From Candidatus Parcubacteria bacterium (GTDB lineage: Bacteria; Patescibacteriota; Minisyncoccia; Minisyncoccales; JAGMDC01), in the NCBI GenBank assembly GCA_023131895.1, contig JAGLYZ010000004.1:29895-93894 (forward strand): a DNA stretch of 64,000 bases, given 5' to 3'. Positions within the stretch are counted from its first letter, which is position 1. Every line of letters begins with the position of its first letter. Positions 2,558 through 59,786 of the stretch are shown piece by piece. The notes below the pieces were generated by a model. It searched no databases. It worked only from the letters and a program-made list of their open reading frames with translations, and was not told where the DNA came from. The position numbers were made by a program, and so were the translations under genes.

Positions 2558-2620
2558 TCACCCTGTTAAATGCTGCTTCGCAGCAATTTTGCCGAAGGCA
2601 AAATTATTTAACAGGGTAAA
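2558..2620 (+). repeat. Palindromic element PE copy 1 (intergenic, pilN-like/pilO-like spacer)
   Basis: TCACCCTGTTAAA ... TTTAACAGGGTA arms enclose hairpins GCTGC-TTC-GCAGC and TTTTGCC-GAA-GGCAAAA. Confidence 0.85.
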
Positions 2621-3212: not shown

Positions 3213-3491
3213 ATGAACCTGAATTTAAACGAAGACAAACAAAAAAGATTAGTGTATTTAATTATAATTCTTATTGTTTTGGTTATAATAGCTTTATTTG
3301 TTTTTAGTAAAAGCTTTTTTGTAAAACAGCCGTCAATCCCTTTAGGTACTAGTTTTGGATTACAAGAAATCAGTATCAATTTTAATATTTTAGAAAATCC
3401 TTTTGTGCAGATGCTTGAACCATTTGAAGAAATTTCTTATCCTTCAGAAGAAATAGAAATAGGCAGAGAAAACCCGTTTATTACATACTAA
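3213..3491 (+). CDS. Small single-pass membrane protein, unknown function
   Basis: ORF with one hydrophobic helix (LVYLIIILIVLVIIALFVF), tightly packed in the pil operon. Confidence 0.35.
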   Translation: MNLNLNEDKQKRLVYLIIILIVLVIIALFVFSKSFFVKQPSIPLGTSFGLQEISINFNILENPFVQMLEPFEEISYPSEEIEIGRENPFITY

Positions 3492-3586
3492 AACATTTTA
3501 ACATTTTAACATTTTAGCATTTAAACATTTCTGATTTCATTTTTTGTTAATATGTTAATATGTTAGTATGTTAATATGTTTAAATG
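3491..3586 (+). repeat. Phased 8-nt repeat array (AACATNNN units, then NNNNATGT units) ending in the pilB start codon
   Basis: Octamers in one register from 3492. ATGs at 3552, 3560, 3568, 3576 and 3584, the last being the pilB start. By-eye alignment shows about 85% identity to the array at 59675-59786. Confidence 0.8.
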
Positions 3587-5311
3587 AGTTTGATAAATCA
3601 GTTAGTAGAAAAAGGTGTCTTAAATAAAAAAGCAGCTGCTTCTTTAAAAAAGGAAATAGAATTATCTGGTAAAAGAGAAGAAGAAATAATTTTACAACAA
3701 GGAATAATTAAGGAAGATGCTTTATTCCAATTAAAAAGCGAGAGTTTGAAGGTTCCTTTAAAAGAAGTTGAGCCATCAGAAGTTCTTTTAGAAGTTTTGA
3801 GATTAATTCCCAGAGATGCTGCTGAGTTTTATCATATGGTTCCTATTAGTAAAAAAGATAGGACATTGGAGATAGGGATGGTTTATCCGGATAATTTAAA
3901 AGCCCAGGAAGCTTTAAAATTTTTAACAAGACGCGAAGGCTATTCTTTCAGAGTTTATCTAATCACTTTATCTAATTTCAGGGAGCTTTTAAAACGATAT
4001 TGGACCCTTAAAAAAGAAGTAAAAAAGGCGCTTACAGAGGTGGAAACAGAAATAGCTGAAGATGAAGTTGAAATTTCTAAGAAAGCGGCTGAATTAGAAA
4101 AGCTGGGAGAAGAGGCTCCTATTTCCAAAATTGTTTCTGTAATTCTAAAACACTCTGTAGACGGGAATGCTTCTGATATCCACATTGAACCAATAAGAGA
4201 ACAGCTGAGAGTAAGGTTTCGTCTTGATGGAATATTGCATTCCTCACTTTTTTTACCTTTAAAAATTCATCCGGCAGTGGTAGCTCGGATTAAGATTTTA
4301 GCAGAGCTAAAAATTGACGAAACTAGGGTTCCTCAAGACGGCAGGATTGGCGCTAAAATTAGCAATAAAGATATTGATTTCAGGGTTTCTACTTTCCCTA
4401 CTATATTGGGCGAGAAAGTAGTGATGAGAGTTCTTGACCCGTCCAAGGGATTAAAAGATTTTAAAAGATTAGGATTAGACGGAAGAAATCTTGAAATTTT
4501 AAACAAAGCAGCTGAAAGACCTTATGGAATGATTTTATCAACTGGGCCTACTGGCTCAGGAAAAAGCACTACATTATATGCTGTTTTACAGATTTTAAAT
4601 AGGGAAGGAGTAAATATTGTTACAATAGAAGATCCAGTGGAGTATTTTATGGAAGGTATTAACCAGTCCCAGACAAAAGAAGAGATTGGCTACGGTTTTG
4701 CTACAGCATTGCGTTCTATTTTAAGGCAGGACCCGGATGTGATTATGGTGGGTGAAATTAGAGATAAAGAGACAGCAGAATTAGCTGTTCATGCTGCTTT
4801 AACCGGGCATATTGTCTTGTCTACCCTTCATACAAATACAGCTGTTGGCGCTATGCCTCGGTTAATTGACTTGGGAATAGAGCCATTTTTACTGCCCCCA
4901 AGCTTAAGCGCAATTTTGGCGCAAAGATTAGTAAGGCGGCTTTGTCCTTTTTGTAAAGAAAAAGTAAAGGCGAATATTAAAGTTAGAGAAAAGATTTTAA
5001 AAGAAATAAATTTTTTGCCAGTTTCTACTAAAGCAGGAATTAAAGTTGATGAACCTATATCTATTTGGCAGGCAAAGGGATGTAAAAAATGCAGGATGCA
5101 GGGATACACTGGAAGGGTTGCTCTTTTTGAAATTTTGGAAATGACTAAAGAGCTTTCAGAAATAGTTTTAAAGGAGCCGTCAGAAAATAATTTCCAAAAA
5201 GAGGCAAAAAGGCAGGGTATGGTTACAATGGCTCAAGACGGCATAATTAAGGTTTTAAATGGAGTTACTTCTATAGAAGAAGTGATTAGGGTTACAAAGG
5301 AAGAAGAATAA
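3584..5311 (+). CDS. pilB: Type IV pilus assembly ATPase PilB (GspE family)
   Basis: Walker A GPTGSGKST, Asp/His boxes, C-terminal tetracysteine (CPFC...CKKC), GSPII_E N-terminal-like domain. Confidence 0.95.
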   Translation: MSLINQLVEKGVLNKKAAASLKKEIELSGKREEEIILQQGIIKEDALFQLKSESLKVPLKEVEPSEVLLEVLRLIPRDAAEFYHMVPISKKDRTLEIGMVYPDNLKAQEALKFLTRREGYSFRVYLITLSNFRELLKRYWTLKKEVKKALTEVETEIAEDEVEISKKAAELEKLGEEAPISKIVSVILKHSVDGNASDIHIEPIREQLRVRFRLDGILHSSLFLPLKIHPAVVARIKILAELKIDETRVPQDGRIGAKISNKDIDFRVSTFPTILGEKVVMRVLDPSKGLKDFKRLGLDGRNLEILNKAAERPYGMILSTGPTGSGKSTTLYAVLQILNREGVNIVTIEDPVEYFMEGINQSQTKEEIGYGFATALRSILRQDPDVIMVGEIRDKETAELAVHAALTGHIVLSTLHTNTAVGAMPRLIDLGIEPFLLPPSLSAILAQRLVRRLCPFCKEKVKANIKVREKILKEINFLPVSTKAGIKVDEPISIWQAKGCKKCRMQGYTGRVALFEILEMTKELSEIVLKEPSENNFQKEAKRQGMVTMAQDGIIKVLNGVTSIEEVIRVTKEEE

Positions 5312-8072: not shown

Positions 8073-8136
8073 TCACCCTGTTAAATCTTTCCGAAAATTT
8101 CGGAAAGAAAATCAAAGATTTTATTTAACAAGGTAA
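8073..8136 (+). repeat. Palindromic element PE copy 2 (intergenic, upstream of pilin gene; right arm degenerate)
   Basis: TCACCCTGTTAAAT ... ATTTAACAAGGTA with hairpins CTTTCCGAAA-AT-TTCGGAAAG and AAAATC-AAA-GATTTT. Confidence 0.8.
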
Positions 8137-9190: not shown

Positions 9191-9210
9191 AATTTTTCAG
9201 CAGAAGATCC

Positions 9211-9229
9211 ACGAAGGTCGGGCCTTCGT
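9211..9229. repeat. REP-like hairpin (left of the RAYT gene)
   Basis: ACGAAGG-TCGGG-CCTTCGT, a 7-bp stem. Confidence 0.75.
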
Positions 9230-9238
9230 TTATCTAAA

Positions 9239-9955
9239 ATGCCAACAAGAAAACACAAATTAGCTAATAATGAGATTTATCATATTATTATTAGAGGAGT
9301 AAATGACTCTGAGATTTTTAAAGATATAAATGATTATTATAGAGCAATTTTTTCCATTTACGAATTTAATACTATTAACTCTGTTGATATCAGACAAAAA
9401 AGAGAGCAACGAGCTCTCACAAAGAAAAACATAAACCAAGGTCGGGCCTTCGTTGATAATAGAGACTTGTTAGTAGAGATATTATGTTTTTGTTTTATGC
9501 CGAATCATGTTCATTTATTGCTCAAGCAGATAAAAGATGATGGAATAACTAAATTTATGAGAAAATTGGGTTCAGGTTATGCAAGTTATTTTAACAAAAA
9601 ATACAGTCGAAAAGGTTATCTTTTTCAAGGAAGATTTTTTCCGGTTCATATTAAAACAGACGAACAATTGCAAGTTATTTTTGCTTATATTCACGTTAAT
9701 TCCATATCTTTGATAGAGCCAAAATGGAAAGAAATTGGAATCCAAGATATAGAAAAAGTCATTAGTTTTTTAGAGGATTATAAATGGTCAAGTTATCCTG
9801 ATTATATTGGCAAGAAGAATTTTCCTTCAGTAACCCATAGAAATTTTATGTTAGAAATGATGAATAAAGAAAAAGGTTGCAAAGATTTTATTGAAAATTG
9901 GATTAGGTACAAAAGCAAGATTAAAAAATTGCCAGATATTGTCTTGAAGAGCTAA
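9239..9955 (+). CDS. REP-associated tyrosine transposase-like protein (IS200/IS605 TnpA Y1 family, RAYT-like)
   Basis: HUH motif in MPNHVHLLL. Tyr-containing AYIHVN motif typical of Y1 transposases. Flanked by REP-like hairpins in opposite orientation. Confidence 0.8.
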   Translation: MPTRKHKLANNEIYHIIIRGVNDSEIFKDINDYYRAIFSIYEFNTINSVDIRQKREQRALTKKNINQGRAFVDNRDLLVEILCFCFMPNHVHLLLKQIKDDGITKFMRKLGSGYASYFNKKYSRKGYLFQGRFFPVHIKTDEQLQVIFAYIHVNSISLIEPKWKEIGIQDIEKVISFLEDYKWSSYPDYIGKKNFPSVTHRNFMLEMMNKEKGCKDFIENWIRYKSKIKKLPDIVLKS

Positions 9956-9979
9956 ACGAAGGCCCGACCTTCGTTTAGC
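9951..9979. repeat. REP-like hairpin (right of the RAYT gene, inverted relative to the left copy)
   Basis: GCTAAACGAAGG-CCCGA-CCTTCGTTTAGC, a 12-bp stem overlapping the RAYT stop codon. Confidence 0.75.
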
Positions 9980-10850: not shown

Positions 10851-10928
10851 TAAAATAATAATTTGAAATTTGTCATTTGACATTGATTTGGAATAATTTG
10901 AGATAATTTGAAATAATTTTAAAAGTTT

Positions 10929-11498
10929 ATGTTAAAATGTTATAATGTTAAAATGAATAAGGCAATGACCTTGATTGAAGTTTTGGTTGTTATTGCCATA
11001 ATGCTTATTCTTATGGCAGTAGCAGTATTTGTAAATCCCAGGCCTTCAGTAGAGCTTGATAACGCTGCTCGGCAATTGGTAAGCGACCTCCGCCGCGCCC
11101 AAAACATGGCAATGTCAGCTTCAACTCAAATAGATGGATGGGGTAATGAGATTGTTCCTTGCGGCTATGGAATTTATACTCCAAATACACAGAAATATGT
11201 TATATTTTATAACGAGACAGATTGTTCAAAATTTCAGCACTGGGGAGGACCCAATCCGCCCTGGCAGGGTAGTATAGATTTTGAAACAGTGGATTTTACA
11301 GATGTAGCTCCGGGCATTACAATAACTCAAGGAGTTTCTTTAAGCATTTATTTTATTCCTCCAAGTGGAACTACTTATATTAATGGAGATTATCCACTTA
11401 TTCCTCCTCCACCTTTGCCTTACTTTGAACTTACAGCTTCCGACGGCTCTATTAGAACTGTCACTGTCACTTCAGCCGGGAAGATTGAAATACAGTAA
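10929..11498 (+). CDS. Minor pilin, GspH/FimT-like (start probably ATG 10953)
   Basis: MNKA-MTLIEVLVVIAIM prepilin-type N-terminus. First of four consecutive pilin-like genes. The upstream part of the ORF lies in the 8-nt ATG ladder. Confidence 0.7.
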   Translation: MLKCYNVKMNKAMTLIEVLVVIAIMLILMAVAVFVNPRPSVELDNAARQLVSDLRRAQNMAMSASTQIDGWGNEIVPCGYGIYTPNTQKYVIFYNETDCSKFQHWGGPNPPWQGSIDFETVDFTDVAPGITITQGVSLSIYFIPPSGTTYINGDYPLIPPPPLPYFELTASDGSIRTVTVTSAGKIEIQ

Positions 11499-11536
11499 AT
11501 CATGTTAACATATTAACATACTAATATCTTAATAAT

Positions 11537-11569
11537 ATGCTTAAATGTTTAAATGCTAAAAAGTTAAAA
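11537..11569 (+). repeat. 33-nt direct repeat, left copy (duplicate of the 5' end of the gene at 12232)
   Basis: ATGCTTAAATGTTTAAATGCTAAAAAGTTAAAA versus ATGTTTAAATGTTTAAATGCTAAAAAGTTAAAA at 12232-12264 (one mismatch). Confidence 0.8.
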
Positions 11570-12208: not shown

Positions 12209-12231
12209 AAATTTAAAAAATAACTGTTTGT

Positions 12232-12879
12232 ATGTTTAAATGTTTAAATGCTAAAAAGTTAAAATGTGAGGGTTTCAGTTTGCTTGAGGTTTTGGTTGCC
12301 ATTACAGTGCTTATTGTTGGCTTGGTTGGTGCCATAGGTTTGATTGTTTATAATGTTTCTATCAGCAGGGCAAGCCCGGAGAAAATTATCGCTGTTAATT
12401 TAGCGCAGGAGGGAATAGAAGTGGTGAGAAACATCCGTGACAGCAACTGGCTGGCAGGTGTGGTTTGGGATCAAGATATTCCTTCTGGCAATTCTATTCC
12501 TATTTTTACAGATAATAATAGAAATGATTGGCCTTCTGACCCAGATAAATGGAGACTTAGTCATATAGGGGCTGCGGAAAGCTGGAAAGAAGATGTTTAC
12601 TATGATGATATTGATAAATTTTATGGCCAGTCAAAAAAGCAAAGCACTAACCCTGCTCAATTTCCAGACGATTGGATTTCAACAATTTTCACTCGTAAGA
12701 TCACTATTACTGAGTTTTTTGTTATTGATGAGAATCCACGTAAGTTCGCTTTTATTAAGATTGTTATGGCTAAGTTTTGGCCAGACCAAGTAAAAGTAAT
12801 TTCCCAAGTTGATTGGACTGACCGCAGCGGGAATTCTCATACCATCATTCTTGAAAACCATTTGTATAATTGGAGATAG
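12232..12879 (+). CDS. Minor pilin, PilV-like
   Basis: ...KLKCEG followed by FSLLEVLVAITVLIVGL. The only in-frame ATG (12232) is the first rung of the 8-nt ATG ladder. Confidence 0.65.
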   Translation: MFKCLNAKKLKCEGFSLLEVLVAITVLIVGLVGAIGLIVYNVSISRASPEKIIAVNLAQEGIEVVRNIRDSNWLAGVVWDQDIPSGNSIPIFTDNNRNDWPSDPDKWRLSHIGAAESWKEDVYYDDIDKFYGQSKKQSTNPAQFPDDWISTIFTRKITITEFFVIDENPRKFAFIKIVMAKFWPDQVKVISQVDWTDRSGNSHTIILENHLYNWR

Positions 12880-15216: not shown

Positions 15217-17274
15217 ATGGATAAGAAACAGACAAAAGAAAGAATTGAAAAACTGAAAAAAGTGATACGAGAAGCAAGATATAGCTATCATGTTTTAGAT
15301 AAATCAATAATGTCTGATGCGGCTTTGGATTCTTTAAAGCATGAGCTTTTTGAATTGGAGCAGAAATATCCTGAATTTATTACACAGGATTCTCCAAGCC
15401 AGAGAATAGGCGGGAAGCCATTAGATAAATTTAAAAAAGTGCGTCATACTGTTGCCCAATGGTCTTTTAATGATGTTTTTGATGAAAGCGAACTTAGAAA
15501 TTTTGACAAGAGAATGAAAAAAGAGCTTGGAACGCAAGAAATGAATTATACTGCTGAACTGAAGATTGACGGCATGCATATTATTTTAACTTATGAAAAA
15601 GGCGTTTTGAAAACTGGAGCAACCAGAGGCGACGGCAAAGTCGGTGAGGATGCCACACAAAATCTAAAAACAATTGAATCAATTCCTTTACGGATAAAAG
15701 AAAATATTGATGTGGTTGTTGAAGGAGAGATTTTTATGAGAAAATCAGTTTTTGAAAAGTTGAATAAACAGAGAAAAGAGCGAGGACAGACCTCGTTCGC
15801 TAATCCCAGGAACGCGGCTGCTGGCGCAATTCGCCAGCTTGATTCAAAAATCGTTAAAGAACGCAAGCTTGACTGTTTTATTTACGATTATTCCTGGCCT
15901 GAAAAAGATGTGCCAGAGACCCAAATTCAAGAGCTGAAAAAATTAATGGAGCTTGGTTTTAAGGTAAATAAAAATTTTCATTATTGTAAAAATATAGATG
16001 AAGTAATAAAATTCTGGAAAGATTGGCAGAAAAAAAGAGAATCCAAGGATTTTTGGATAGATGGAATAGTGGTAAAAGTAAATCGCAGGGAATATCAGAA
16101 CAAGCTTGGCTATACAGGCAAGGCGCCTAGATGGGCAATTGCTTTTAAGTGGCCTGGTGAACAGGCAGCAACGATTTTAGAAAAAGTAGTTTTTCAAATT
16201 GGCAGAACAGGCAGGCTTACGCCAGTTGCCTGCCTAAAGCCGGTCAATATTGGCGGAGCCGTTGTTTCCAGGGCAACCCTGCATAATGCTGATGAGATTA
16301 AGCGGCTGGGAGTAAAGACCGGCGATACAGTGATTGTTGAAAAAGCTGGCGATGTTATTCCTCATATTAATAGGTTTTTGCCAGCGCTTAGGCCAAAAGA
16401 TGCTAAAAATATTCAAACTCCGGGTGCCTGCCCTGTTTGCGGTTCAAAAGTAGTTAGGCCGAAAGGAGAGGTAGCGCATTATTGTTCAAACAAAAAATGC
16501 GGAGCCAGGCAAAGAAACAAACTTTCTTGGTTTGCTTCCAAGAAAGCATTTGATATTGAAGGATTAGGGCCAAAAATCATTGACCAGTTAATGGACAAGG
16601 GATTAGTTTCAAACCCTGCTGATTTATTTACATTGAAAAAAGGAGATATAATTCCTTTGGAAAGCTTGCACCGTAAGAAGCCGAAGGCTTTCCTTCGGGG
16701 ATTTGCTGAAAAATCAAGTTCTAATTTAATACAAGCTATTGAGAAAAGCAGGACAATAACTTTGCCAAAGTTTTTGATTTCTCTTGGTATAAAATATATT
16801 GGTGAGGAAACAGCAGAACTTCTTATTCGCAAGATACAAGATACAAGACACAAGATACAAAGCATTAATAATTTAATTGATTTTTTTGAAAGTAAAAATC
16901 AAGAATATTTTGAACAAATTGATGGCATAGGTCCAAAAGCAGCCACAAGTATTAAGAATTGGTTTTCCCAAAAAGAAAACATTCAGCTTTTGCGAGATTT
17001 GTTCAAAGCCGGCGTGAAGATAGAAAAAGAAAAATTAGTAAAAAGCAGTAAATTAACCGGTAGGTCTTTTGTTTTTACCGGAGAATTGAAATCAATGTCC
17101 AGAGACAAAGCAAAAGAAAGAATAAAAGAATCAGGAGGCAAAACGCCTAATTCAATAAGCAGGAATACTGATTTTCTGGTTGTTGGCAAAAGTCCTGGTT
17201 CTAAATATGAAAAAGCAAAAGCATTGGGAATTAATATAATTTTAGAAAAAGAATTTTTAGGAATGATAAAATGA
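15217..17274 (+). CDS. ligA: NAD-dependent DNA ligase LigA
   Basis: Adenylation motif ELKIDG, OB fold, Zn finger CPVCGS...C, HhH repeats, C-terminal BRCT (FVFTGEL). The start is moved to ATG 15217 because the TTG 15142 extension spans the terminator. Confidence 0.95.
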   Translation: MDKKQTKERIEKLKKVIREARYSYHVLDKSIMSDAALDSLKHELFELEQKYPEFITQDSPSQRIGGKPLDKFKKVRHTVAQWSFNDVFDESELRNFDKRMKKELGTQEMNYTAELKIDGMHIILTYEKGVLKTGATRGDGKVGEDATQNLKTIESIPLRIKENIDVVVEGEIFMRKSVFEKLNKQRKERGQTSFANPRNAAAGAIRQLDSKIVKERKLDCFIYDYSWPEKDVPETQIQELKKLMELGFKVNKNFHYCKNIDEVIKFWKDWQKKRESKDFWIDGIVVKVNRREYQNKLGYTGKAPRWAIAFKWPGEQAATILEKVVFQIGRTGRLTPVACLKPVNIGGAVVSRATLHNADEIKRLGVKTGDTVIVEKAGDVIPHINRFLPALRPKDAKNIQTPGACPVCGSKVVRPKGEVAHYCSNKKCGARQRNKLSWFASKKAFDIEGLGPKIIDQLMDKGLVSNPADLFTLKKGDIIPLESLHRKKPKAFLRGFAEKSSSNLIQAIEKSRTITLPKFLISLGIKYIGEETAELLIRKIQDTRHKIQSINNLIDFFESKNQEYFEQIDGIGPKAATSIKNWFSQKENIQLLRDLFKAGVKIEKEKLVKSSKLTGRSFVFTGELKSMSRDKAKERIKESGGKTPNSISRNTDFLVVGKSPGSKYEKAKALGINIILEKEFLGMIK

Positions 17275-18413: not shown

Positions 18414-20948
18414 ATGAGTAATAATTCAGAAAAAGAAAAACCAAAAGAAAAAACAGCTGAAATTGGTTATATAAAGCCCAGAGAAATTACTGAAGAAATG
18501 AAGGAATCATATATTGATTATGCTATGTCAGTAATTGTTGCCAGGGCTTTGCCTGATGTTAGAGACGGTTTAAAGCCGGTTCATCGCCGGATTTTGTATG
18601 CAATGTTTGAAGATGGCCTGAAGCATGATGCTAAATTTAGAAAATCAGCTACCGTAGTGGGTTCAGTTTTGGGTCGTTACCATCCTCATGGCGATACTGC
18701 TGTCTATGATTCTTTAGTGCGAATGGCACAGGATTTTTCTTTGAGATATCCTTTGATTAAAGGTCAAGGAAATTTTGGATCAATCGATGGCGATCCAGCG
18801 AGCGCCATGAGATATTCAGAGGCGAAACTTTCCAAAATTGGTGAGGAAACATTAAAAGATATCACTAGAGAGACAGTGGATTTTAGGGATAATTATGACG
18901 GGACCAGGAAAGAACCGACTGTCTTGCCCTCGCCAATGCCCCAGCTTTTATTAAATGGTTCTTTAGGAATCGCAGTTGGCATGATGACTAATATCCCTCC
19001 TCATAATTTGTCAGAAGTGGCAAATGGAGCTATTCATTTAATTGATAATCCAAAGGCAACGACAGAAGACCTTTTTGAATTTATTAAAGGGCCTGATTTT
19101 CCTACTGGCGGCATCATCTATAATAGAAAAGAAATTATCAGCGCTTATTGCCAAGGCAATGGTCCTATAGTAATAAGGGGAAAAACAGAAACATCTGAAG
19201 ATAAAAAAGGCAGGAACAGGATTTTAATTACAGAAATCCCATATCAAGTTCAAAAATCATCTTTGGTAGAACAGTTTGCCAAGCTTGTTCAAGAAAAAAA
19301 AATCACTGGTATTAGAGATATTAGAGACGAATCAGACAGGGAAGGTATGAGAATTGTTATTGAACTTCAGCGCGATGCTTTCCCGCAAAAAATCTTGAAT
19401 CGGCTTTATAAATTTTCCGATCTTCAAAAAACATTTCATCTTAATATGCTTGCTTTGGTAGATGGTATCCAGCCAAAGGTTTTATCACTTTTAGAGGTCT
19501 TAAACTACTTTATAATTCATAGAAAAGAAGTAGTAATCAGAAGAACCAAATATGATTTGCGCAAAGCAGAAGAAAGAGCGCATATTTTGGAAGGCTTGCA
19601 TAAATGTCTGTCAAAGATTGATGAAGTGATTAAGACAATTAAAGCATCGGCTAACCGGGAAGATGCGCTGAAGAATTTAATGAAAAAATTCAAGCTTACT
19701 GAAATTCAGGCAAACGCTATTTTAGAGACAAAGCTTTCTGCCTTAGCAAAGCTGGAAAGAAAGAAAATTGAGGAAGAATTGGCAGAAAAGAAAAGGCTAA
19801 TAAAAGAATTAGAAGCTATTTTAAAAAGCCCGCAAAAAATTAAAGAAGTCATTAAAAAAGAGCTTAGAGAAATTATTGAAAACTTCGGCGATGAAAGAAG
19901 AACCAAGCTTGTTGTCCAGAAAGTCGGCGAAATTGCTGAAGAGGATTTAATTCCGCAGGAAGAAACGATTATTACTTTAACCCAAGGCGGGTATATAAAA
20001 AGAGTGAATCCTAATGTTTATAAGATCCAAAAGAGAGGGGGCAAGGGCATTATGGGGATGAAAACTTTAGGAGAAGATATTGTAGAACATTTCCTTTTTT
20101 GCCAAACCCATGACGAACTTCTTTTCTTTACTGATTCAGGAAAGGTTTTTAAAATTCCTGCTTATGAAGTTCCTGAAGGAACAAGGGTTGCTAAAGGCAG
20201 AGGAATTTTGAATTTTTTAGAGCTTACTCCTCAAGATAAGATATTATCTATTCTTCATTTTAAAAAAAAGGGAGACCAAGAAGATGAAATGAAGTATTTA
20301 GTAATGGCAACGAAAAATGGTATGATAAAGAAAACAGATTTAAGCGAATTTGAAAATGTAAGAAGGTCAGGCTTAATTGCTATTAATCTTAAAAAAGGTG
20401 ATTCGCTTAGAAGTGTAAATAGAACCTCTGGCCATGATGAAATAGCCTTTGTGACCAAAAAAGGACAGTCAATTAGGTTTAAAGAAGATAATGTGCGACC
20501 TATGGGCAGGACAGCTGCTGGGGTGACTGGAATAAGATTAAAGGGGGACGATGAGTTGATTGGAATGGACGTTATTCACCCTGTTAAATTGTCCCGAAAG
20601 TTTTCGGGACACCTCGCAAAGCGAGGATTTAACAGGGTAAAAATTCAAAACTATCTTTTAGTTGTAAGCGAGAACGGATATGGAAAAAGAACTGATTTAA
20701 AAGAATACAGATTACAGACAAGGGGCGGTTCTGGAATAAAGACAGCCAATATTACTGAAAAGACAGGAGATTTGGTTGCCTCTAAGGTTCTTTCTGGAGA
20801 GGAGGAAGATTTAATCGTTATTTCTCGAAAAGGCCAGATTATCAGAACTCCTGTTAATTCTATTTCTATAATCAGCAGGTCAACGCAAGGCGTAAGAATA
20901 ATGCGCTTGGACAAAGGAGATAAGGTGGCATCAGGCGCTTGTATATAA
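18414..20948 (+). CDS. gyrA: DNA gyrase subunit A
   Basis: [16 protein letters not shown], catalytic Tyr context AMRYSEAKL, GyrA-box-like region and C-terminal beta-pinwheel repeats. Confidence 0.97.
20576..20640 (+). repeat. Palindromic element PE copy 3 (in-frame inside the gyrA C-terminal domain)
   Basis: TCACCCTGTTAAAT-GTCCCGAAA-GT-TTTCGGGAC-A-CCTCGC-AAA-GCGAGG-ATTTAACAGGGTAA. Translated as [22 protein letters not shown]. Confidence 0.85.
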
Positions 20949-21670: not shown

Positions 21671-22000
21671 ATGAAAATGAGAAAGTTTCTATTTATGTTA
21701 TCAGTAGGATTAGTTCTTTTTGCGCCAGTAGTGATTCAAGGTATAGAAATAGAAAATCCTTTAGACTGCGCTACTATTGACTGTGTGATTGCTTCTATCG
21801 CTGGTTTTATTTTTATGCTTGCTATAGCGATTGCGCCAATAATGTTTATAATTGCCGGCTTTGCCTTTATCACTGCGGCTGGTGATCCAGTTAAGATTCA
21901 AAAAGCTAAAGATATTGTCCTATGGACAGTTATAGGACTAGCCATTGTTTTAATGGCTTATGGAATAATTAATGTAATTCAGGAGATTTTTATAGAATAA
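21671..22000 (+). CDS. Small secreted two-TM protein, TrbC/VirB2- or T4SS-pilin-like
   Basis: Signal peptide, then two hydrophobic helices around IIAGFAFITAAGDPVKIQKAKD, resembling T4SS pilin families (from memory, not searched). Confidence 0.55.
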   Translation: MKMRKFLFMLSVGLVLFAPVVIQGIEIENPLDCATIDCVIASIAGFIFMLAIAIAPIMFIIAGFAFITAAGDPVKIQKAKDIVLWTVIGLAIVLMAYGIINVIQEIFIE

Positions 22001-22013
22001 TTTTAGCCAATTT

Positions 22014-23084
22014 ATGAAAAAAATATTTATATTAGCGATTATTTTTGTTTTTTTGTTTATTTTTGCAGTATTAATAGAAGCTAAGGATTGTGATTGGAAT
22101 ACTCCTACTTGTGGGGGATGGGCCGGATGTGAAGAAACTAATATTCAAAGCGGGTGTTCAGAGATAGCAGATTGTAGTGTTGGAGAAGGTTTTGGCGGCT
22201 GGGCTTGGCCGAAATGTGATTGTAATCTTAAAACAGAAGGTGAAAGTGATTGTTGGTGCGAGTGTAATGAACAATGCGCAGATGATTGGTGTAAAGGTTT
22301 TGGTAGCGCTAAGGGAATATGCAAAAATGGAATAGGAATTTGTTGTGATGCCACAGAAACAAATTGCGAGATTGATTCAGATGATGAAGATTGTGACGGC
22401 AAATTAAATTGTAACGATAAAGAAGATTGTGAAGGTGAGATTTGTGATACAAATAAAGTATGCAAGAATGGAGCTTGTGTTGAGAGAAAACCAGCTTGTG
22501 GTGTTGATTGCCAGCAGATAACTCAAACTTGTCTTTGCGGCAGTAAAGAAATAAAAGTAGAAAGCGGAGAGTTTTGTTGTATTGCTTTAAGTAAAAAGTA
22601 TGCTTTAAAAACAGATTGCGAGGAACAATGTGAGCCGGTTTGTCCAGAAGATTGTGATAATTTAGCTCCTGCGCCTTGTTATTGCGGTTCAAAATTAATT
22701 GAAGCTGATGAGGAGAAGTATTGTTATAACAACAAAACTTATGCTGATCAAGAAAAGTGTAAAGAAGCTGAGGCAGCGCCGCCAGGACCGCCTCCAGTGG
22801 TAGAACCAGAATGTCCTCCAGGCTCAATTTGCATTGATAATCCTATAACATCAACTAGTTTTGAAGATTTAGTTAATTCTATTGTTAATTTTATTTTTAT
22901 GCTTGCCATAGCGATTGCTCCGATAATGTTTATTATTGCTGGATTTGCTTTTATCACTGCGGCTGGGGACCCAGCAAAAGTCCAGAAAGCAAAAGATATT
23001 GCTTTATGGACAGCAATAGGTTTAATGGTTGTTTTAATGGCTTATGGAATAATCAATGTTATTAAAGAAATTTTCAGCGGATAA
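22014..23084 (+). CDS. Cysteine-rich ectodomain fused to a T4SS-pilin-like C-terminal module
   Basis: Signal peptide, about 250 aa with about 38 Cys, Pro-rich linker APPGPPPVVEPECPPGS, then 62 aa nearly identical to the C-terminus of the 21671 product. Confidence 0.55.
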   Translation: MKKIFILAIIFVFLFIFAVLIEAKDCDWNTPTCGGWAGCEETNIQSGCSEIADCSVGEGFGGWAWPKCDCNLKTEGESDCWCECNEQCADDWCKGFGSAKGICKNGIGICCDATETNCEIDSDDEDCDGKLNCNDKEDCEGEICDTNKVCKNGACVERKPACGVDCQQITQTCLCGSKEIKVESGEFCCIALSKKYALKTDCEEQCEPVCPEDCDNLAPAPCYCGSKLIEADEEKYCYNNKTYADQEKCKEAEAAPPGPPPVVEPECPPGSICIDNPITSTSFEDLVNSIVNFIFMLAIAIAPIMFIIAGFAFITAAGDPAKVQKAKDIALWTAIGLMVVLMAYGIINVIKEIFSG

Positions 23085-25011: not shown

Positions 25012-26211
25012 TTAATTTATTCTAAGATTAGCATTAACTTTAATATTTTTCCAATTTTGAGTTTCTTTTTTATGGAAATAAGCAGTTATGCCTATCATCG
25101 CAGCATTGTCAGTGCAGAATTTTTTTGTGGGAGCTAAAAAAACAAATTGGCTGCCAGTCATTGATAATTTCTTTTTAAATTGTTTTTGCAGTTCTTCATT
25201 AGCAGAAACGCCTCCGCCAAGAATAATTGTTCTTACTTTATAATCCTTTGCTGCTTTTATGGTTTTTTTAATTAAAATATCAATTACTGCTTGTTGTATT
25301 TCCTTGCACATTGCTTGAATATATTTTTCTTTTTTTACCCTGTTAAATAAAATCTCTGATTTTCTTTTGCTGGAAGCAAAAGATTTAACAGGGTGAACCG
25401 CATATAAAACAGCGGTTTTTAATCCAGAAAAACTAAAATCATAATCCTTGCTATACATCATCGGTCTAGGTAATTTTACCCTGTTAAATAAAATCTCTGA
25501 TTTTCTTTTGCTGGAAGCAAAAGATTTAACAGGGTGAATTTTAGATTTCCATTGCCGAGCTTGTTCCGCGATGGCTGGACCGCCAGGGTAACTAAGCCCT
25601 AAAATCCGAGCTGTTTTGTCAAAACATTCCCCTGCAGCATCATCTCTTGTTTCTCCGAGAATTTTGTATTTTCCAATATCTTTCATTAAAATCAATTGTG
25701 TATGCCCGCCGCTTACAACTAGGCATATCGCAGGAAATATTTTTTTTGGATTTTGGATTTTGGATTTCTCGCCAATTTGTAGGAGCAAATTGGCGAGAAT
25801 ATGTGCCTCAATATGGTTAACTGGTATAATTTTTAAATTCCATAAACGAGCTAAAGATTTAGCGAAGTTCACACCTGTCCATAAACAAGGTTCCAGGCCA
25901 GGGCCAGTAGTCACAGCAATCAAATCAATTTTCGGTTTTATAAAGTTTTTTATTCCTGCTTTTTTCAAAGCTTTTTTCAACACTGGTAAAAGATTTTTCT
26001 GGTGTTCTCTTTTTGCCATTGCCGGGTACACTCCTCCATATTTTTTGTGAATTTCTATCTGTGATGAAACAAAATTAGAGAGAATTTCTACCCTGTTAAA
26101 TAATTTCGCTTTTGGCGAAATTCCCCGATTTATCGGGGATTTAACAGGGTGAATTTTTAAAATACTAATACAAGTATCATCACAAGATGTTTCAATTGCT
26201 AAGATAATCAT
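25012..26211 (-). CDS. tsaD: tRNA N6-adenosine threonylcarbamoyltransferase TsaD, interrupted in-frame by three palindromic elements
   Basis: IETSCDDT, YGGVYP, HIEAH, VSGGHTQL, DDAAGECFDKTARILGL, PRPM, DFSFSGLKT, GGGVSAN, FCTDNAAMI. Confidence 0.93.
   Translation of the reverse strand: MIILAIETSCDDTCISILKIHPVKSPINRGISPKAKLFNRVEILSNFVSSQIEIHKKYGGVYPAMAKREHQKNLLPVLKKALKKAGIKNFIKPKIDLIAVTTGPGLEPCLWTGVNFAKSLARLWNLKIIPVNHIEAHILANLLLQIGEKSKIQNPKKIFPAICLVVSGGHTQLILMKDIGKYKILGETRDDAAGECFDKTARILGLSYPGGPAIAEQARQWKSKIHPVKSFASSKRKSEILFNRVKLPRPMMYSKDYDFSFSGLKTAVLYAVHPVKSFASSKRKSEILFNRVKKEKYIQAMCKEIQQAVIDILIKKTIKAAKDYKVRTIILGGGVSANEELQKQFKKKLSMTGSQFVFLAPTKKFCTDNAAMIGITAYFHKKETQNWKNIKVNANLRIN
25333..25397 (-). 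repeat. Palindromic element PE copy 4 (in-frame in tsaD)
   Basis: Identical over 65 nt to copy 5. Hairpins AAAATC-TCT-GATTTT and CTTTTGC-TGGAA-GCAAAAG. Read as HPVKSFASSKRKSEILFNRV. Confidence 0.9.
25474..25538 (-). repeat. Palindromic element PE copy 5 (in-frame in tsaD)
   Basis: Identical over 65 nt to copy 4, located 141 nt away. Confidence 0.9.
26088..26153 (-). repeat. Palindromic element PE copy 6 (in-frame in tsaD)
   Basis: Same arms. Hairpins ATTTCGC-TTTTG-GCGAAAT and TCCCCGA-TTTA-TCGGGGA. Read as HPVKSPINRGISPKAKLFNRV. Confidence 0.9.
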
Positions 26212-32855: not shown

Positions 32856-33277
32856 AAAATACGCTTCGGGGTCGTTGCACTTGATTTTCTTCCGCTATCG
32901 CTACATAACACAAGTATATCTGGCTCGCTCCTGCCGTTGCTCGACCCATATTTGCCTCCATAGATTGAAATGATAATATGGAATGGAGGCAAACATCAGA
33001 TATGCTGATACATTATATATCATAAAGTTTTGATAATTGAGAGAATAGCAAAAAGGTTTTCTTTTACCTTTTAAAAGGTAAAAGAAATGGTGCGCGAAGC
33101 ATGTCGTTAGTTTCGTTCAAAATAAGTTCGGATTTAATTAAACAACCATACCAAAAAATCGCCTTATGGCGATTTTTTTAGTGCACTATATTAAAGATAG
33201 TTAGAACATTTTTCGCTCGCTTCGCTGATGCCTCGGCGAAGCGGGCCGTCTGCGGCGGCGATGAAGCCCCCAAAAAT

Positions 33278-33303
33278 TCAGAGCGGCTTCGCCGCGTTCT
33301 TTA
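33278..33303. repeat. 26-bp inverted repeat, left copy
   Basis: TCAGAGCGGCTTCGCCGCGTTCTTTA is the exact reverse complement of 34137-34162. Contains hairpin GCGGC-TTC-GCCGC. Confidence 0.85.
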
Positions 33304-33372: not shown

Positions 33373-34038
33373 TCAATCAATTAATATAAAACATCTACCA
33401 TAGATAGATCTAGTTTCATCTGAAAATGTTAAATTTTTGGGGCAACAAGCAAAATAACATTTTTTCTCTCCAGCAGTTGGTCCCAATTCGCAACCAAGCG
33501 GTCTCCATTCACAATTTGGAGTCTCTTCGCAGGGAAAATGTGAGCGTTCAGATGCTGAAACAATATCCTTTCCCACATTACACTTATCCATAATGGCTTC
33601 TGGCTTTCCTTTTAACTCGCAACAATCAAAATAACAAGTCCAGTTCCATTGTGAAACAAATTTCTCTATTTTCAGTCCTTCTTCTACAGCGGAGGCCTTA
33701 ACAAATTTACAATTGCAATTAGTAAAATCAAAATCTTTATATTTTTGCCATTCCTTGTACCAAATATTTTCTTTTCTCACCTCTTTTGAGATCATTATTT
33801 GAATGAAATCTTTCAATCTGTTTCCGCACAATTTCTTTTGTTCTTCTTGGTTGCCGGGAGGGCCTTCTTCATCACCGGCACCCATTCCAAAGTAAATATT
33901 ATGACAATCTAACTTTTCCACTTGCGAAGATTTAGATATGTCCTCTGGTTCTGTTTCTCTTTTTTCCCCACCGCCAGCGATGACGATAATGGTGATTAGA
34001 ACAATTATTCCACCAATAATTAGAATTACTTTTTTCAT
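33373..34038 (-). CDS. Secreted/membrane-anchored cysteine-rich protein, unknown function
   Basis: N-terminal hydrophobic helix, then a domain with about 16 Cys including CC and CxC pairs. No recognisable family. Confidence 0.6.
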   Translation of the reverse strand: MKKVILIIGGIIVLITIIVIAGGGEKRETEPEDISKSSQVEKLDCHNIYFGMGAGDEEGPPGNQEEQKKLCGNRLKDFIQIMISKEVRKENIWYKEWQKYKDFDFTNCNCKFVKASAVEEGLKIEKFVSQWNWTCYFDCCELKGKPEAIMDKCNVGKDIVSASERSHFPCEETPNCEWRPLGCELGPTAGEKKCYFACCPKNLTFSDETRSIYGRCFILID

Positions 34039-34136: not shown

Positions 34137-34162
34137 TAAAGAACGCGGCGAAGCCGCTCTGA
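34137..34162. repeat. 26-bp inverted repeat, right copy
   Basis: TAAAGAACGCGGCGAAGCCGCTCTGA. Lies 11 nt from the 3' end of tRNA-Leu(GAG). Confidence 0.85.
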
Positions 34163-34173
34163 CTTTTTCTCGG

Positions 34174-35610: not shown

Positions 35611-35686
35611 TGGTGGGCGTGGCAGGACTCGAACCTGCGAACCTAACGCTTATAAGACGTTTGCTCTACCACTGAGCTACACGCCC
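35611..35686 (-). tRNA. tRNA-Ile (anticodon UAU), CCA encoded
   Basis: Acceptor GGGCGTG/CACGCCC, D-arm GCTC-AGTGGTA-GAGC, anticodon stem AACGT/GCGTT with loop CTTATAA, T-arm GCAGG-TTCGAGT-CCTGC. The variable region appears to be 6 nt. Confidence 0.75.
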
Positions 35687-35693
35687 AATTTAA

Positions 35694-36368
35694 TTATATA
35701 TTTTTACTTAAATAATAATCACTGATAGATTTCAATCCCATAAGTATTTTTTCCGTCAGCCTCGCATCCCCAATTTTCACATTACAAGTACCATGACCAA
35801 AACTTCCTTTATGATTTATACTCGCCTTATCTGTTTTTTTGATATAGGGTTTATTAAATTGGGAAATGGGAATATTTAAAATTTCTGACCAAAATTTTAT
35901 TTCTTTAGCAATATTCATATCTTTATATAAATGAAGATGAACCTTAAGTTTCTCCTTAGGTACCTTTAAACTTTTTATTAGCCAATCCATAAAAAATTTT
36001 ATAATTGAGGGATCTGTATTTGATACAGAAAGACGACACATACCAACTTTTGCTCCTTCTCCCCAATAAAGAAATAAACCGGCAAGATATAATTCTCGTT
36101 TATCAAAGGGAAAAATAATTCTTTTTTGTTCTTTACAAAATTTATTTAACCTTTCTTCTTTCTTTTTTCTTTTTGTTTCTCGGCATTTTTCAATTCTCTG
36201 CTCATTCCAGTCACGAAGTTCCCTTATTCTTTTTTTAGATAAAGGGTAATCTTTAAGCCAAGCACTCAAAGTACTTTTACTTACTTTTAATATCTTTTTG
36301 ATTTGGCTATAACTCATTCCTTGTTTTCTTAGAGTTAAGGCCATTTGATGATCTTTAAACTTAGCCAT
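35694..36368 (-). CDS. HTH domain protein with a LAGLIDADG-like motif (possible free-standing homing endonuclease)
   Basis: N-terminal HTH-like QGMSYSQIKKILKVSKSTLSAWL. YLAGLFLYWGEGAK resembles the LAGLIDADG/GEG motif. Sits between a tRNA gene and a duplicated tRNA 5' stub. Confidence 0.5.
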   Translation of the reverse strand: MAKFKDHQMALTLRKQGMSYSQIKKILKVSKSTLSAWLKDYPLSKKRIRELRDWNEQRIEKCRETKRKKKEERLNKFCKEQKRIIFPFDKRELYLAGLFLYWGEGAKVGMCRLSVSNTDPSIIKFFMDWLIKSLKVPKEKLKVHLHLYKDMNIAKEIKFWSEILNIPISQFNKPYIKKTDKASINHKGSFGHGTCNVKIGDARLTEKILMGLKSISDYYLSKNI

Positions 36369-47226: not shown

Positions 47227-47323
47227 CTGTTTAGTACTACTTTGTTATGGATTTTATTCTTGATAAAAACGGCTATAGATCTGGCTGTTTTTTTGTAGAA
47301 ATCGGGTTTTTGTGATAGAATAA

Positions 47324-47403
47324 AACATATAAACATACTAACATATAAACATACTAACATATAAACGAATGCTTAAATGTTAAAATGTTTGAATGTTTAG
47401 ATG
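47324..47403 (+). repeat. Phased 8-nt repeat array (5 x AACATNNN then 5 x NNNNNATG) ending in the ftsK start codon
   Basis: Ten octamers in a single register. ATGs at 47369, 47377, 47385, 47393 and 47401, the last being the ftsK start. Confidence 0.85.
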
Positions 47404-54415: not shown

Positions 54416-55042
54416 TTATTCTTCTTTCAAAAAATCTAAATTTTTTGGCATTTTCTTTAAAGGTTTTTCAAAGCGCAGTTTTGGGACTTTTTTATAGTTT
54501 TTGTTTTTTATCCAGCCGGTTTTAGTATAAAAATAACCGGCGCCTCCCATTTTTCCTAATTCATCATAAATATTTTTATTTTTTATAGAAACCCAATTCG
54601 CGATTTTCAACTCTTTTTTTAATGGGTTGATAGTTATGGCAGCATATTTTGGCGGAAAAATTACGCATTCTCCTTTTTTTGCTTCAACAACAACAATGTC
54701 TTCAATAATCTTTCCTTTTGTTTTTTGCATTAAAAAAATTGCTTTTCCATCAAGTACAATATATAACTCTTGGAAATTTTTTGAGTTCATATTGCCTTTA
54801 GTCCTTACAAACTCTTTGCCCAGCATTCTTGCAGGAATAATCGTAATATCATATCTTAACCCTGTTAAATGCCGCTTTGCGGCACCCCGCCTTTTATGTA
54901 AAGGCTGGGTATTTAACAGGGTAAATTCTCCTTTATGTTTTATACCGCGATGCATATAATAAAGCTCAAGATTTGGTGCTGTTTTTACCCATTTCTGGTC
55001 ATAAAGAACTTTTTTCATGTCATTTAAATATCTTATTTCCAT
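54416..55042 (-). CDS. Cupin-type glucose-6-phosphate isomerase-like protein (metal ligands substituted), with in-frame palindromic element
   Basis: LGKEFVRTKGNMNSKNFQELYIVLDGKAIFLMQ and VIFPPKYAAITIN align by eye with the archaeal cupin PGI blocks GKEFFFTKGHFH...EVY and PPYWAHRTVN. Confidence 0.65.
   Translation of the reverse strand: MEIRYLNDMKKVLYDQKWVKTAPNLELYYMHRGIKHKGEFTLLNTQPLHKRRGAAKRHLTGLRYDITIIPARMLGKEFVRTKGNMNSKNFQELYIVLDGKAIFLMQKTKGKIIEDIVVVEAKKGECVIFPPKYAAITINPLKKELKIANWVSIKNKNIYDELGKMGGAGYFYTKTGWIKNKNYKKVPKLRFEKPLKKMPKNLDFLKEE
54857..54925. repeat. Palindromic element PE copy 7 (in-frame in the cupin gene, in a different reading frame of the arms)
   Basis: AACCCTGTTAAAT-GCCGC-TTT-GCGGC-A-CCCGCCTTT-TATGT-AAAGGCTGGG-T-ATTTAACAGGGTAAA. 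Read on the minus strand as TLLNTQPLHKRRGAAKRHLTGL. Confidence 0.85.
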
Positions 55043-59594: not shown

Positions 59595-59674
59595 ATTATA
59601 TTAGAATATCACAATAATTATTTTCTGGCAATGTTGACAAAAATTTTGTTTTGTTTAAGATAGAGAAGTGATTA

Positions 59675-59786
59675 CAACATCTTAACATTTTAACATTCAA
59701 ACATCTTAACATTTCTGATTTTATCTTTTGTTAATATGTTAGCATGTTAGTATGCTTAAATGTTATTATGTTAAAATGATTTTATG
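59675..59786 (+). repeat. Phased 8-nt repeat array ending in the groES start codon (homologous to 3491-3586)
   Basis: AACATNNN x5, conserved core TTCTGATTTTATCTTTTG, then ATGs at 59736, 59744, 59752, 59760, 59768, 59776 and 59784, the last being the groES start. Confidence 0.85.

Follow-up and report, generated by a model that had tools for sequence, protein, structure and literature searches.

A short palindromic repeat inserted in frame in the gyrA gene of a Candidatus Parcubacteria genome, and the dispersed family to which it belongs

The DNA analysed here, a stretch of 64,000 nucleotides from contig JAGLYZ010000004.1 of a Candidatus Parcubacteria bacterium (the window), includes gyrA, which encodes a DNA gyrase subunit A of 844 residues. 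The predicted protein showed 100% identity to a database entry, 'DNA gyrase subunit A [Candidatus Parcubacteria bacterium]', from a Minisyncoccales metagenome-assembled genome (MAG), in which Pfam domains PF00521 and PF03989 are present. Within the region coding for the C-terminal domain (CTD) lies a palindromic unit of 63 nt, open in the gyrA reading frame and reading HPVK...FNRV, or 21 residues, in translation. Copies of the same element were found in tsaD (three), in the open reading frame (ORF) of a cupin-type glucose-6-phosphate isomerase (GPI; one) and between genes (two); all are listed in Table 1.

Table 1. Positions of gyrA, of its inserted unit and of the remaining copies in the window; a slash marks the point of insertion.
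Feature	Position	Arm pair	Strand	Remarks
gyrA, host gene	18414..20948		+	DNA gyrase subunit A, 844 aa; from the ORF list
Left flank of gyrA unit, TT	20575..20576		+	probably target-derived (..ATT/AAA..), inferred
Inserted palindromic unit in gyrA	20577..20639	20579-20637	+	63 nt, CA-CCCTG...CAGGG-TA; in frame as HPVK...FNRV, 21 aa
H codon of insert, CAC	20577-20579		+	
5' arm	20578..20589		+	ACCCTGTTAAAT, 12 nt; codes part of HPVK
Hairpin 1	20590..20611		+	TGTCCCGAAAGTTTTCGGGACA = TGTCCCGAAA-GT-TTTCGGGACA
Hairpin 2	20612..20626		+	CCTCGCAAAGCGAGG = CCTCGC-AAA-GCGAGG
3' arm	20627..20638		+	ATTTAACAGGGT; codes FNRV
Right flank of gyrA unit, AAA (Lys)	20640..20642		+	probably target-derived, inferred
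Intergenic copy, pilN-like ORF / pilO	2559..2618	2561-2616	+	
Intergenic copy, pilC (T2SSF) / pilin gene	8074..8135	8076-8133	+	62 nt (not a multiple of 3)
tsaD gene	25012..26211		-	Pfam TsaD
tsaD copy 3	25336..25395	25338-25393	-	60 nt, HPVKSFASSKRKSEILFNRV
tsaD copy 2	25477..25536	25479-25534	-	60 nt; 100% identical to copy 3 over 65 nt
tsaD copy 1	26089..26151	26091-26149	-	63 nt, HPVKSPINRGISPKAKLFNRV
Copy in GPI ORF	54858..54923	54860-54921	-	ORF 54416..55042, PF06560

The gyrA unit consists, in order, of CA, the first arm, two hairpins, the second arm and TA, its ends having been inferred from a comparison of filled and empty tsaD sites. An earlier note on this DNA had placed the element at 20576-20640; the sequence was as described there, but these limits are off by 1-2 nt. 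Likewise, of its statement that 22 residues were encoded exactly by the element, the in-frame insert stood, but the unit most likely comprises 63 nt and 21 residues and the following Lys belongs to the target. Either strand of the gyrA copy forms a perfect three-way junction with zero unpaired bases at the junction. Its folding energy was -37.6 kcal/mol (z = -10.6), and none of 200 shuffled sequences was equally stable; across all copies in the window, z ranged from -5 to -10.6. The peptide encoded by the insert is strongly basic (4 K, 3 R and 2 H, with no D or E).

The 10-mer of the arm, CCCTGTTAAA, occurred 22 times in the window when up to one mismatch was allowed, against an expectation of 6.4 +/- 2.3, and 22 was reached in 0 of 100 shuffles. 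Exact matches formed seven close inverted pairs, which define the seven copies. The arms were uniform among these copies, but no two independent copies shared either inner hairpin. In gyrA and in each of the three tsaD copies the reading frame and the sense are the same, although the two genes lie on opposite genomic strands, just as the earlier note had it. The GPI copy is translated in the other open frame, as FTLLN...HLTGL.

An alignment of 120 GyrA homologs showed that the insert is specific to a lineage and not a native segment of GyrA. The ortholog with 92% identity (P0002; DNA in L121) carries it with one hairpin remodelled. Orthologs at 84-88% identity (P0003-P0008 and P0044) lack it and have instead a short loop, either GMDII-KTQKVKEK-TQNY or GMDVI-KLK-VKDY; throughout the family, the loop at this site is variable in length and rich in K and Q. 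Hairpin 2 is identical in the window and L121 copies, and the arms differ by a single base, whereas hairpin 1 is TGTCCGCC-GAA-GGCGAACA in L121 and TGTCCCGAAA-GT-TTTCGGGACA in the window, which is 3 nt longer with the frame kept. Only one other GyrA among the 120, outside this pair, contained an HPVK..FNRV segment: P0064 (73% identity) has HPVKSVRGGAAKPQFNRVK at exactly the same loop, encoded in L123 by the same arms around unrelated hairpins. To judge from these hairpins, this is an independent copy in the same GyrA loop. The central claim of the earlier note, a palindromic insertion in frame in the GyrA CTD, was thus borne out by presence in the 92% ortholog, absence at 84-88% and dispersal elsewhere, and the segment was not seen without its palindrome in any unrelated GyrA among the homologs, for the DNA of P0064 carries the palindrome too. 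The GyrA insertion is best read, from its distribution, as dating to a recent ancestor of the window genome and its 92% relative.

In the syntenic relative L121, none of the three tsaD copies is present, and TsaD has 360 residues compared with 399 in the window; copy 2 is absent from L123 also. Copy 3 was a precise gain of 60 nt with respect to the 92% relative, AV/KKEK having become AV-HPVK..FNRV-KKEK. Since three copies are missing from the relative, two of them are 100% identical and one is a clean gain, the element has moved recently.

The site of insertion was aligned with the M. tuberculosis GyrA CTD structure 4G3N (...LLSLNVV-REG-TYLLVATSGGYAKRT), in which it corresponds to a tight beta-turn (NVV-REG-TYLL); the window loop is about 21 residues longer. 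The insert takes the place of a loop in the C-terminal beta-pinwheel that was itself rich in Lys. Modelled by AlphaFold2 with 46 homologs, the CTD had a mean pLDDT of 84 and a pTM of 0.84. The insert (CTD residues ~222-243) scored 50-61, compared with 95-97 for the neighbouring strands (215-221 and 247-252); hence, the model shows the insert as a low-confidence excursion from an otherwise complete pinwheel. Separately, gyrA in this clade is host to several kinds of insertion: two close relatives, P0007 (1309 aa) and P0044 (937 aa), have an intein (PF14890) in the gene, and P0004 and P0007 have an 11-residue insert, TSGPSGQQPGG, in the neighbouring CTD loop.

One genome per species was scanned for ACCCTGTTAAAT-N25-55-ATTTAACAGGGT, with exact arms required, which biases the apparent conservation of the arms. 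At least 120 loci were recovered, and all family counts given here (130 interiors and 138-139 copies) are counts among the matches listed. These matches came from many Patescibacteria classes, from several Omnitrophota MAGs (multiple contigs each), from WOR-3 and Stahlbacteria, from seven Desulfobacterota-type MAGs and from single MAGs labelled Bacteroidetes, Spirochaetales, Udaeobacter and Gammaproteobacteria; one was a complete chromosome (CP179888.1). The viral contigs scanned gave 0 matches and Rfam gave none. A literature search returned no paper that gave these arm sequences in a pertinent setting, nor any on MITEs (miniature transposable elements with inverted repeats) or repetitive extragenic palindromic (REP) elements in genomes of the candidate phyla radiation (CPR). 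The element represents a repeat family that is widespread across several phyla and apparently undescribed.

The unit measures 60-66 nt, and filled and empty sites, when compared, suggested lengths of 60, 63 or 66 nt. There were 130 distinct interiors, nearly every copy being different; 108 of the 130 had exactly two hairpins, at -0.379 kcal/mol per nt against -0.165 for shuffled sequence. Extra copies within the same loci had variant arms, several of them compensated on both sides (e.g., ACCCCGTGAAAT/ATTTCACGGGGT). In a gap-free subset of 11 copies, seven hairpin pairs had double-sided changes, a figure reached by 0 of 500 shuffles; this subset was picked by fold, and its pairing of 100% follows in part from that choice. 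Each arm can be extended to 16 nt, as TT-Y-ACCCTGTTAAAT ... ATTTAACAGGGT-R-AA, with T at 0.79 and 0.74 at positions -4 and -3 and A at 0.93 and 0.94 at +3 and +4; further out, the flanks are only A-rich. At the penultimate position, 73 of 138 copies had one C end and one T end where 43 were expected (p = 2e-7); this excess indicates that the two ends are heritably different, the stem closing with a C.A or G.T pair. The hairpin loops were symmetric between strands (GAA 14 versus TTC 12; AAA 9 versus TTT 12) and the interior was not polarised relative to the ends.

Several subfamilies were distinguished by what surrounds the core. A long form (L019, L053, L059, L076, L103, L110 and L119) has the junction core centred in an imperfect palindrome of ~110-150 nt, the flanks of which (~50 nt on each side) are conserved and contain TATAAT-like boxes. 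It lies 40-50 nt upstream of unrelated genes (recA, a GTPase gene, atpF, nusA, rplB, dnaJ and rpsL) and, given its boxes, may donate a promoter. These seven loci could have been one orthologous site with similar flanks, but their neighbouring genes differ and they were classed as a subfamily. A second group, in WOR-3 and Stahlbacteria (L026, L049, L054, L062, L037, L064 and L016), combines the same arms with a conserved, non-hairpin interior of 39-41 nt and has extra ATCTGCG repeats outside both arms; a CRISPR array was rejected here, because the copies are dispersed, without a tandem array, and have conserved ATCTGCG flanks. A third has asymmetric conserved flanks, ATAAAATTCAGC-[core]-AAAGGTTTG, in different genomes (L046, L052, L077, L093 and L112), and in reverse in L004, L020, L032, L063, L068, L069, L071, L094 and L120. 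Loci L045, L047 and L050 make up a further subfamily, AGAAGCTCTTAC-[core]-TAAGAATTTGTA.

Comparison of filled and empty sites suggested that the inserted unit is CA-CCCTG...CAGGG-TA and that it lands between ..TT and AA(A).. of the empty allele. Empty alleles read AAA ATT/AAA TTG at tsaD site 2 (L123), GCAGTAAAAAAAG at tsaD site 3 (L121) and ATT/AAA in the gyrA relatives, with AAA or GTAAAA at the position of the right flank. Landing in this way would explain the Ile/Val-Lys junctions, the Lys-rich loops and the single, fully open frame. No consistent direct repeat was found at any boundary offset, and a small excess of direct repeats reflected conserved flanks specific to subfamilies, at variable offsets; the filled tsaD site had gained its 60 nt without duplication. 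Some copies abut each other, being 3-4 nt apart, and solo arms were rare. No arm partner at kilobase scale, nor any parent insertion sequence (IS) with the same ends, was present in ~1 Mb of DNA scanned. Neither the window ORFs tested nor the surroundings of the inspected copies contained a transposase or an integrase; the search for a transposase in the window yielded only a protein with a helix-turn-helix (HTH) and a LAGLIDADG-like motif.

The strand beginning with CA and ending with TA was the sense strand in 12:1 cases inside genes and 24:12 between tandem genes (36:13 in total). Orientation in the window follows gene direction and GC skew shows no replichore switch, although only four independent sites are concerned. 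An origin of the bias in an AAA-TAA stop, encountered in the other orientation, was considered but given up, the interior having no polarity with respect to the ends; strand-specific loop motifs (UUCG, GNRA) were rejected as signs of RNA selection because the loops are symmetric between strands.

Of 139 copies, 22 lay within long ORFs (5 in the window and 17 in other genomes), and 21 of these preserved the frame, whereas copies outside ORFs divided 52/37/28 among the three length classes; the proportion is partly biased by ascertainment, since an ORF can span only a frame-preserving copy. No gene was split out of frame by a copy among ~139. Split genes would have been a sign of removal from RNA; the tight cases proved to be separate genes, such as the pilN-like gene and pilO in the window, or genes ended by TAA. 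In the latter, the gene reads into the first arm and stops on the element's own TAA, leaving a terminal HPVK: TyrRS (...IIIHPVK), LigA (...LLHPVK), GAPDH (...LIHPVK), L13 (...KIHPVK) and uracil-DNA glycosylase (...IHPVK). Preservation of frame, the lack of split genes and the 3-nt step in hairpin 1 together make the pattern that is expected of read-through, and not of splicing or bypass; judged by this pattern, translation and not removal is the most likely fate of the element.

The explanation that we consider probable is that the gyrA segment is a non-autonomous mobile palindrome, inserted in frame, tolerated in a Lys-rich loop and translated. A unit of two inverted arms of 12-16 nt, enclosing two short hairpins of almost free sequence, would have entered the gene where an Ile/Val codon (..TT) meets a Lys codon (AAA..), within an A-rich beta-hairpin loop of variable length. 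Having a length that is a multiple of three and no stop in frame, it would be transcribed and translated as 21 extra basic residues, which would protrude from the domain and leave the fold undisturbed. It would persist through tolerance, there being no sign that GyrA needs it, and the insert is most likely a tolerated passenger in a permissive loop. In the model of movement that we prefer, an enzyme acting in trans would recognise the paired arms, and the terminal mismatch, in folded single-stranded DNA, with the inner hairpins needed only to bring the arms together; this would fit the lack of a consistent target duplication, the C/T ends and interiors that need only to fold. In a bolder form, to which we attach a small probability, the family would be a new, structure-defined class of mobile DNA, a junction of ~60 nt moving as folded single-stranded DNA with its outer stem of 12-16 bp read by a recombinase or nuclease that is conserved and may be encoded by the host. 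The exact arms in Patescibacteria, Omnitrophota, WOR-3 and Desulfobacterota, the C/T ends, the lack of target duplication and the interiors conserved in fold only would all be explained, and short basic peptides would then be systematically seeded into essential proteins of ultra-small bacteria. Several observations weigh against the explanation that we consider probable. The exact boundary in gyrA is blurred, being situated in a low-complexity loop where the nearest empty alleles differ by indels; no candidate for the mobilising enzyme was identified in the window ORFs or near the inspected copies; and the frame statistics carry the ascertainment bias described above. A neutral passenger does not obviously predict the sense-strand bias or the conservation of arms across phyla, and some function of the element at the level of DNA or RNA is possible. 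Finally, unit length (core + 4) was divisible by 3 for 73 of 138 copies and for ~44% of those outside long ORFs; this excess is puzzling if intergenic copies are free of coding constraint.

Alternatively, the insert could be an adaptive basic loop on a domain that wraps DNA, tuning DNA binding or wrapping by gyrase, with the element as a source of peptide cassettes. Its seven Lys/Arg and two His residues without an acidic residue, in place of a Lys-rich loop, would suit this, as would the second, independent copy at the same loop in the 73% ortholog, retention since the split from the 92% relative and survival of the frame through hairpin remodelling. Yet the closest orthologs without the insert (84-88%) manage without it, the same HPVK/FNRV ends occur in unrelated proteins (three times in TsaD, in GPI, at the LigA and GAPDH C-termini and in others), the interior peptide differs in every copy and the insert has low confidence in the model. 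Preference for an ATT/AAA target together with tolerance explains recurrence at one loop equally well, and adaptation is considered unlikely. Much the same low probability is given to a role for the nucleic acid itself, in which the three-way junction, formed in mRNA or in single-stranded DNA, would be selected, for instance as a stabiliser or processing site of mRNA, or as a pause, promoter or protein-binding site, with the coding copies arising as by-products. The extreme stability of the fold in all window copies, arms conserved across phyla with compensated variants, the CA..TA sense bias with an orientation that tracks transcription rather than replichore, and the long form just upstream of recA, nusA, dnaJ and rpsL with its TATAAT-like boxes are consistent with it; but the loops favour no transcribed strand, the interior lacks polarity relative to the ends, Rfam gave no match, a T-run for termination is missing, and close relatives differ by gains and losses of copies, as is usual for mobile DNA and not for fixed regulators. 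That the element escapes translation, through intron-like or RNase removal from the mRNA or through ribosome bypass (as in mitochondrial 'byp' elements or T4 gene 60), seems very improbable. A perfect junction does join both ends in a geometry suited to excision, and so stable a fold would challenge a translating ribosome. Removal or bypass, however, would lift the constraint on length and stops, and yet 21 of the 22 ORF-spanning copies preserve the frame and are free of stops, none of the ~139 splits a gene out of frame and genes end on the element's TAA where the frame allows; nor are there conserved unpaired junction bases for a catalytic core, or an Rfam ribozyme or intron match. An artefact of assembly or binning is scarcely credible: all sources are MAGs and palindromes can cause misassembly, but the same insert is found in two independently assembled relatives with diverged flanks, the family is present in more than 100 assemblies of different projects, including complete chromosome CP179888.1, and copies stand in frame within conserved genes.

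Other repeats and unusual genes were observed in the window. ligA has an extra in-frame segment at 16660-16720, SLHRKKPKAFLR, around a small hairpin (AAGCC-GAA-GGCTT). The 92% relative has this segment too; here, a small palindromic insertion of a different kind occupies another essential gene. Another family of hairpins, AACGAAGGTCGGGCCTTCGTT (21 nt), occurs at 9199-9233, 9423-9457, 9944-9978 and 58440-58496, with some copies inside ORFs and one being a triple overlapping structure at 58451-58496. In total, the window has 14 perfect GC-containing hairpins, compared with 0-3 in shuffled sequence. Arrays of an 8-bp periodic motif, TTAACATT / AACATNTT, form inverted intergenic blocks at 3473-3596, 47321-47404 and 59665-59784, the motif occurring also at 10928, 11496-11569 and 12223-12267; these might be iteron- or operator-like. 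A 32-nt inverted repeat (33272-33303 / 34137-34168, 97% complementary) brackets an ORF of 221 residues (33373..34038, minus strand), for which neither Pfam nor NCBIfam gave a match. The ORF at 35694-36368 (minus strand) combines an N-terminal HTH of transposase/resolvase type with a LAGLIDADG-like motif (LAGLFLYWGEG) and adjoins genes for tRNA-Ile and tRNA-Val; on these motifs, it may be a free-standing gene resembling those of homing endonucleases. The tRNA-Ile, identified by ARAGORN at 35611-35686 (minus strand), has the anticodon TAT, which is unusual in bacteria, where AUA is normally decoded with a modified CAU anticodon. Two adjacent genes share a direct repeat of 252 nt (21749-22000 and 22833-23084; 77% identity), which forms the C-terminal T4SS-pilin (TrbC/VirB2-like) domain in both; one of these genes has a Cys-rich N-terminal region fused to it. 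Ribosomal protein L19 (34263-34883, minus strand) has 205 residues compared with 148 in L123, the Pfam domain covering residues 2-125 and leaving a long C-terminal extension.

The interest of these observations lies in the family rather than in the gyrA copy, as it is widespread, mechanistically unexplained and apparently undescribed. For annotation and modelling of CPR proteins, loops of ~20 residues with HPVK...FNRV ends can be recognised and masked, and C-termini ending in HPVK can be accounted for. For evolution, the element supplies new surface loops and marks recent changes between closely related genomes. For mechanism, its conserved arms, asymmetric ends and hairpins of free sequence provide a clear substrate for an enzyme search.

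Comparison was made with known systems. Self-splicing introns, ribozymes and bypass elements were rejected on the constraint of frame and stops, on the lack of unpaired conserved junction bases and on the lack of an Rfam match. The palindrome-associated elements (PATEs) derived from IS200/IS605 and the REP/REPIN elements are also non-autonomous, rich in hairpins and without target duplication, and presumably act as folded single strands, a mode of action for which a bias of orientation is expected; their conserved subterminal hairpins, or a REP with a conserved 5' tetranucleotide, are recognised by a Y1 transposase or RAYT, and they have no long terminal inverted repeat. Here, by contrast, the hairpins are hypervariable (130 interiors) and the conserved part is a long outer stem; no Y1 transposase or RAYT gene was seen among the window ORFs examined.

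The outer 8 bp of the element arm (TGTTAAAT) equal the outer part of the XerD-binding arm of E. coli dif, TTATGTTAAAT (PMC3025954). A universally conserved recombinase would explain the conservation of arms across phyla, although so short a resemblance may be due to chance. The two differ in that dif is built of 11 + 6 + 11 bp with the AAAT end outward and occurs once per replicon, whereas the half-sites of the element face inward, 25-70 nt apart, in many copies per genome. No full dif-like site was found in the DNA scanned. A dif/Xer site was rejected on architecture, a XerD-like neighbour in L037 being at chance level, and is kept as a lead only.

Integron attC sites (~55-140 nt) resemble the element in having short conserved ends, a variable structured centre and an asymmetry that possibly marks one folded strand. 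The arms match both motifs of the attC core consensus exactly, GTTAAAT fitting GTTRRRY and ATTTAAC fitting RYYYAAC. However, the order is GTTAAAT...ATTTAAC in all copies, as opposed to RYYYAAC...GTTRRRY in attC, so that the half-sites are reversed and attC was rejected; moreover, gyrA-type copies lie in and between housekeeping genes, without cassette arrays or an integrase near the inspected copies. Like bacterial MITEs (e.g., Correia, ERIC, Nezha), which in the classical case are deletion derivatives of a DDE-type IS, the element is small (<300 bp), multicopy, without coding capacity of its own and provided with terminal inverted repeats; it has intergenic and intragenic copies, and the long form lies beside gene starts with promoter-like boxes. 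It is unlike them in having no fixed target-site duplication, ends that are heritably unlike (C/T) and an interior constrained by fold and not by sequence; the ~1 Mb scanned gave no IS with the same ends.

The closest known phenomenon is best read as that of the Rickettsia palindromic elements (RPEs). These are ~150 bp long, fall into ten families (RPE-1 to RPE-10) confined to Rickettsia, each with a conserved peptide, and many of their copies stand in frame in unrelated genes, where they are translated as additional peptide segments at sites that the protein fold can bear (PMC10969869). Common to both are short length, a palindromic form, lack of autonomy, dispersal through a reduced genome and in-frame insertion in unrelated housekeeping genes. 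The gyrA-type element, which is set apart from RPEs by their description and not by a comparison of sequences, is only 60-66 nt long, occurs in several phyla and conserves only 4+4 residues (HPVK / FNRV) around a hypervariable, fold-constrained interior. That selfish palindromes can colonise essential genes in frame has so far been a textbook curiosity, largely confined to Rickettsia; the same is seen here in a free-standing family that is shorter, defined by its fold and common to several phyla of mostly uncultivated bacteria with small genomes.

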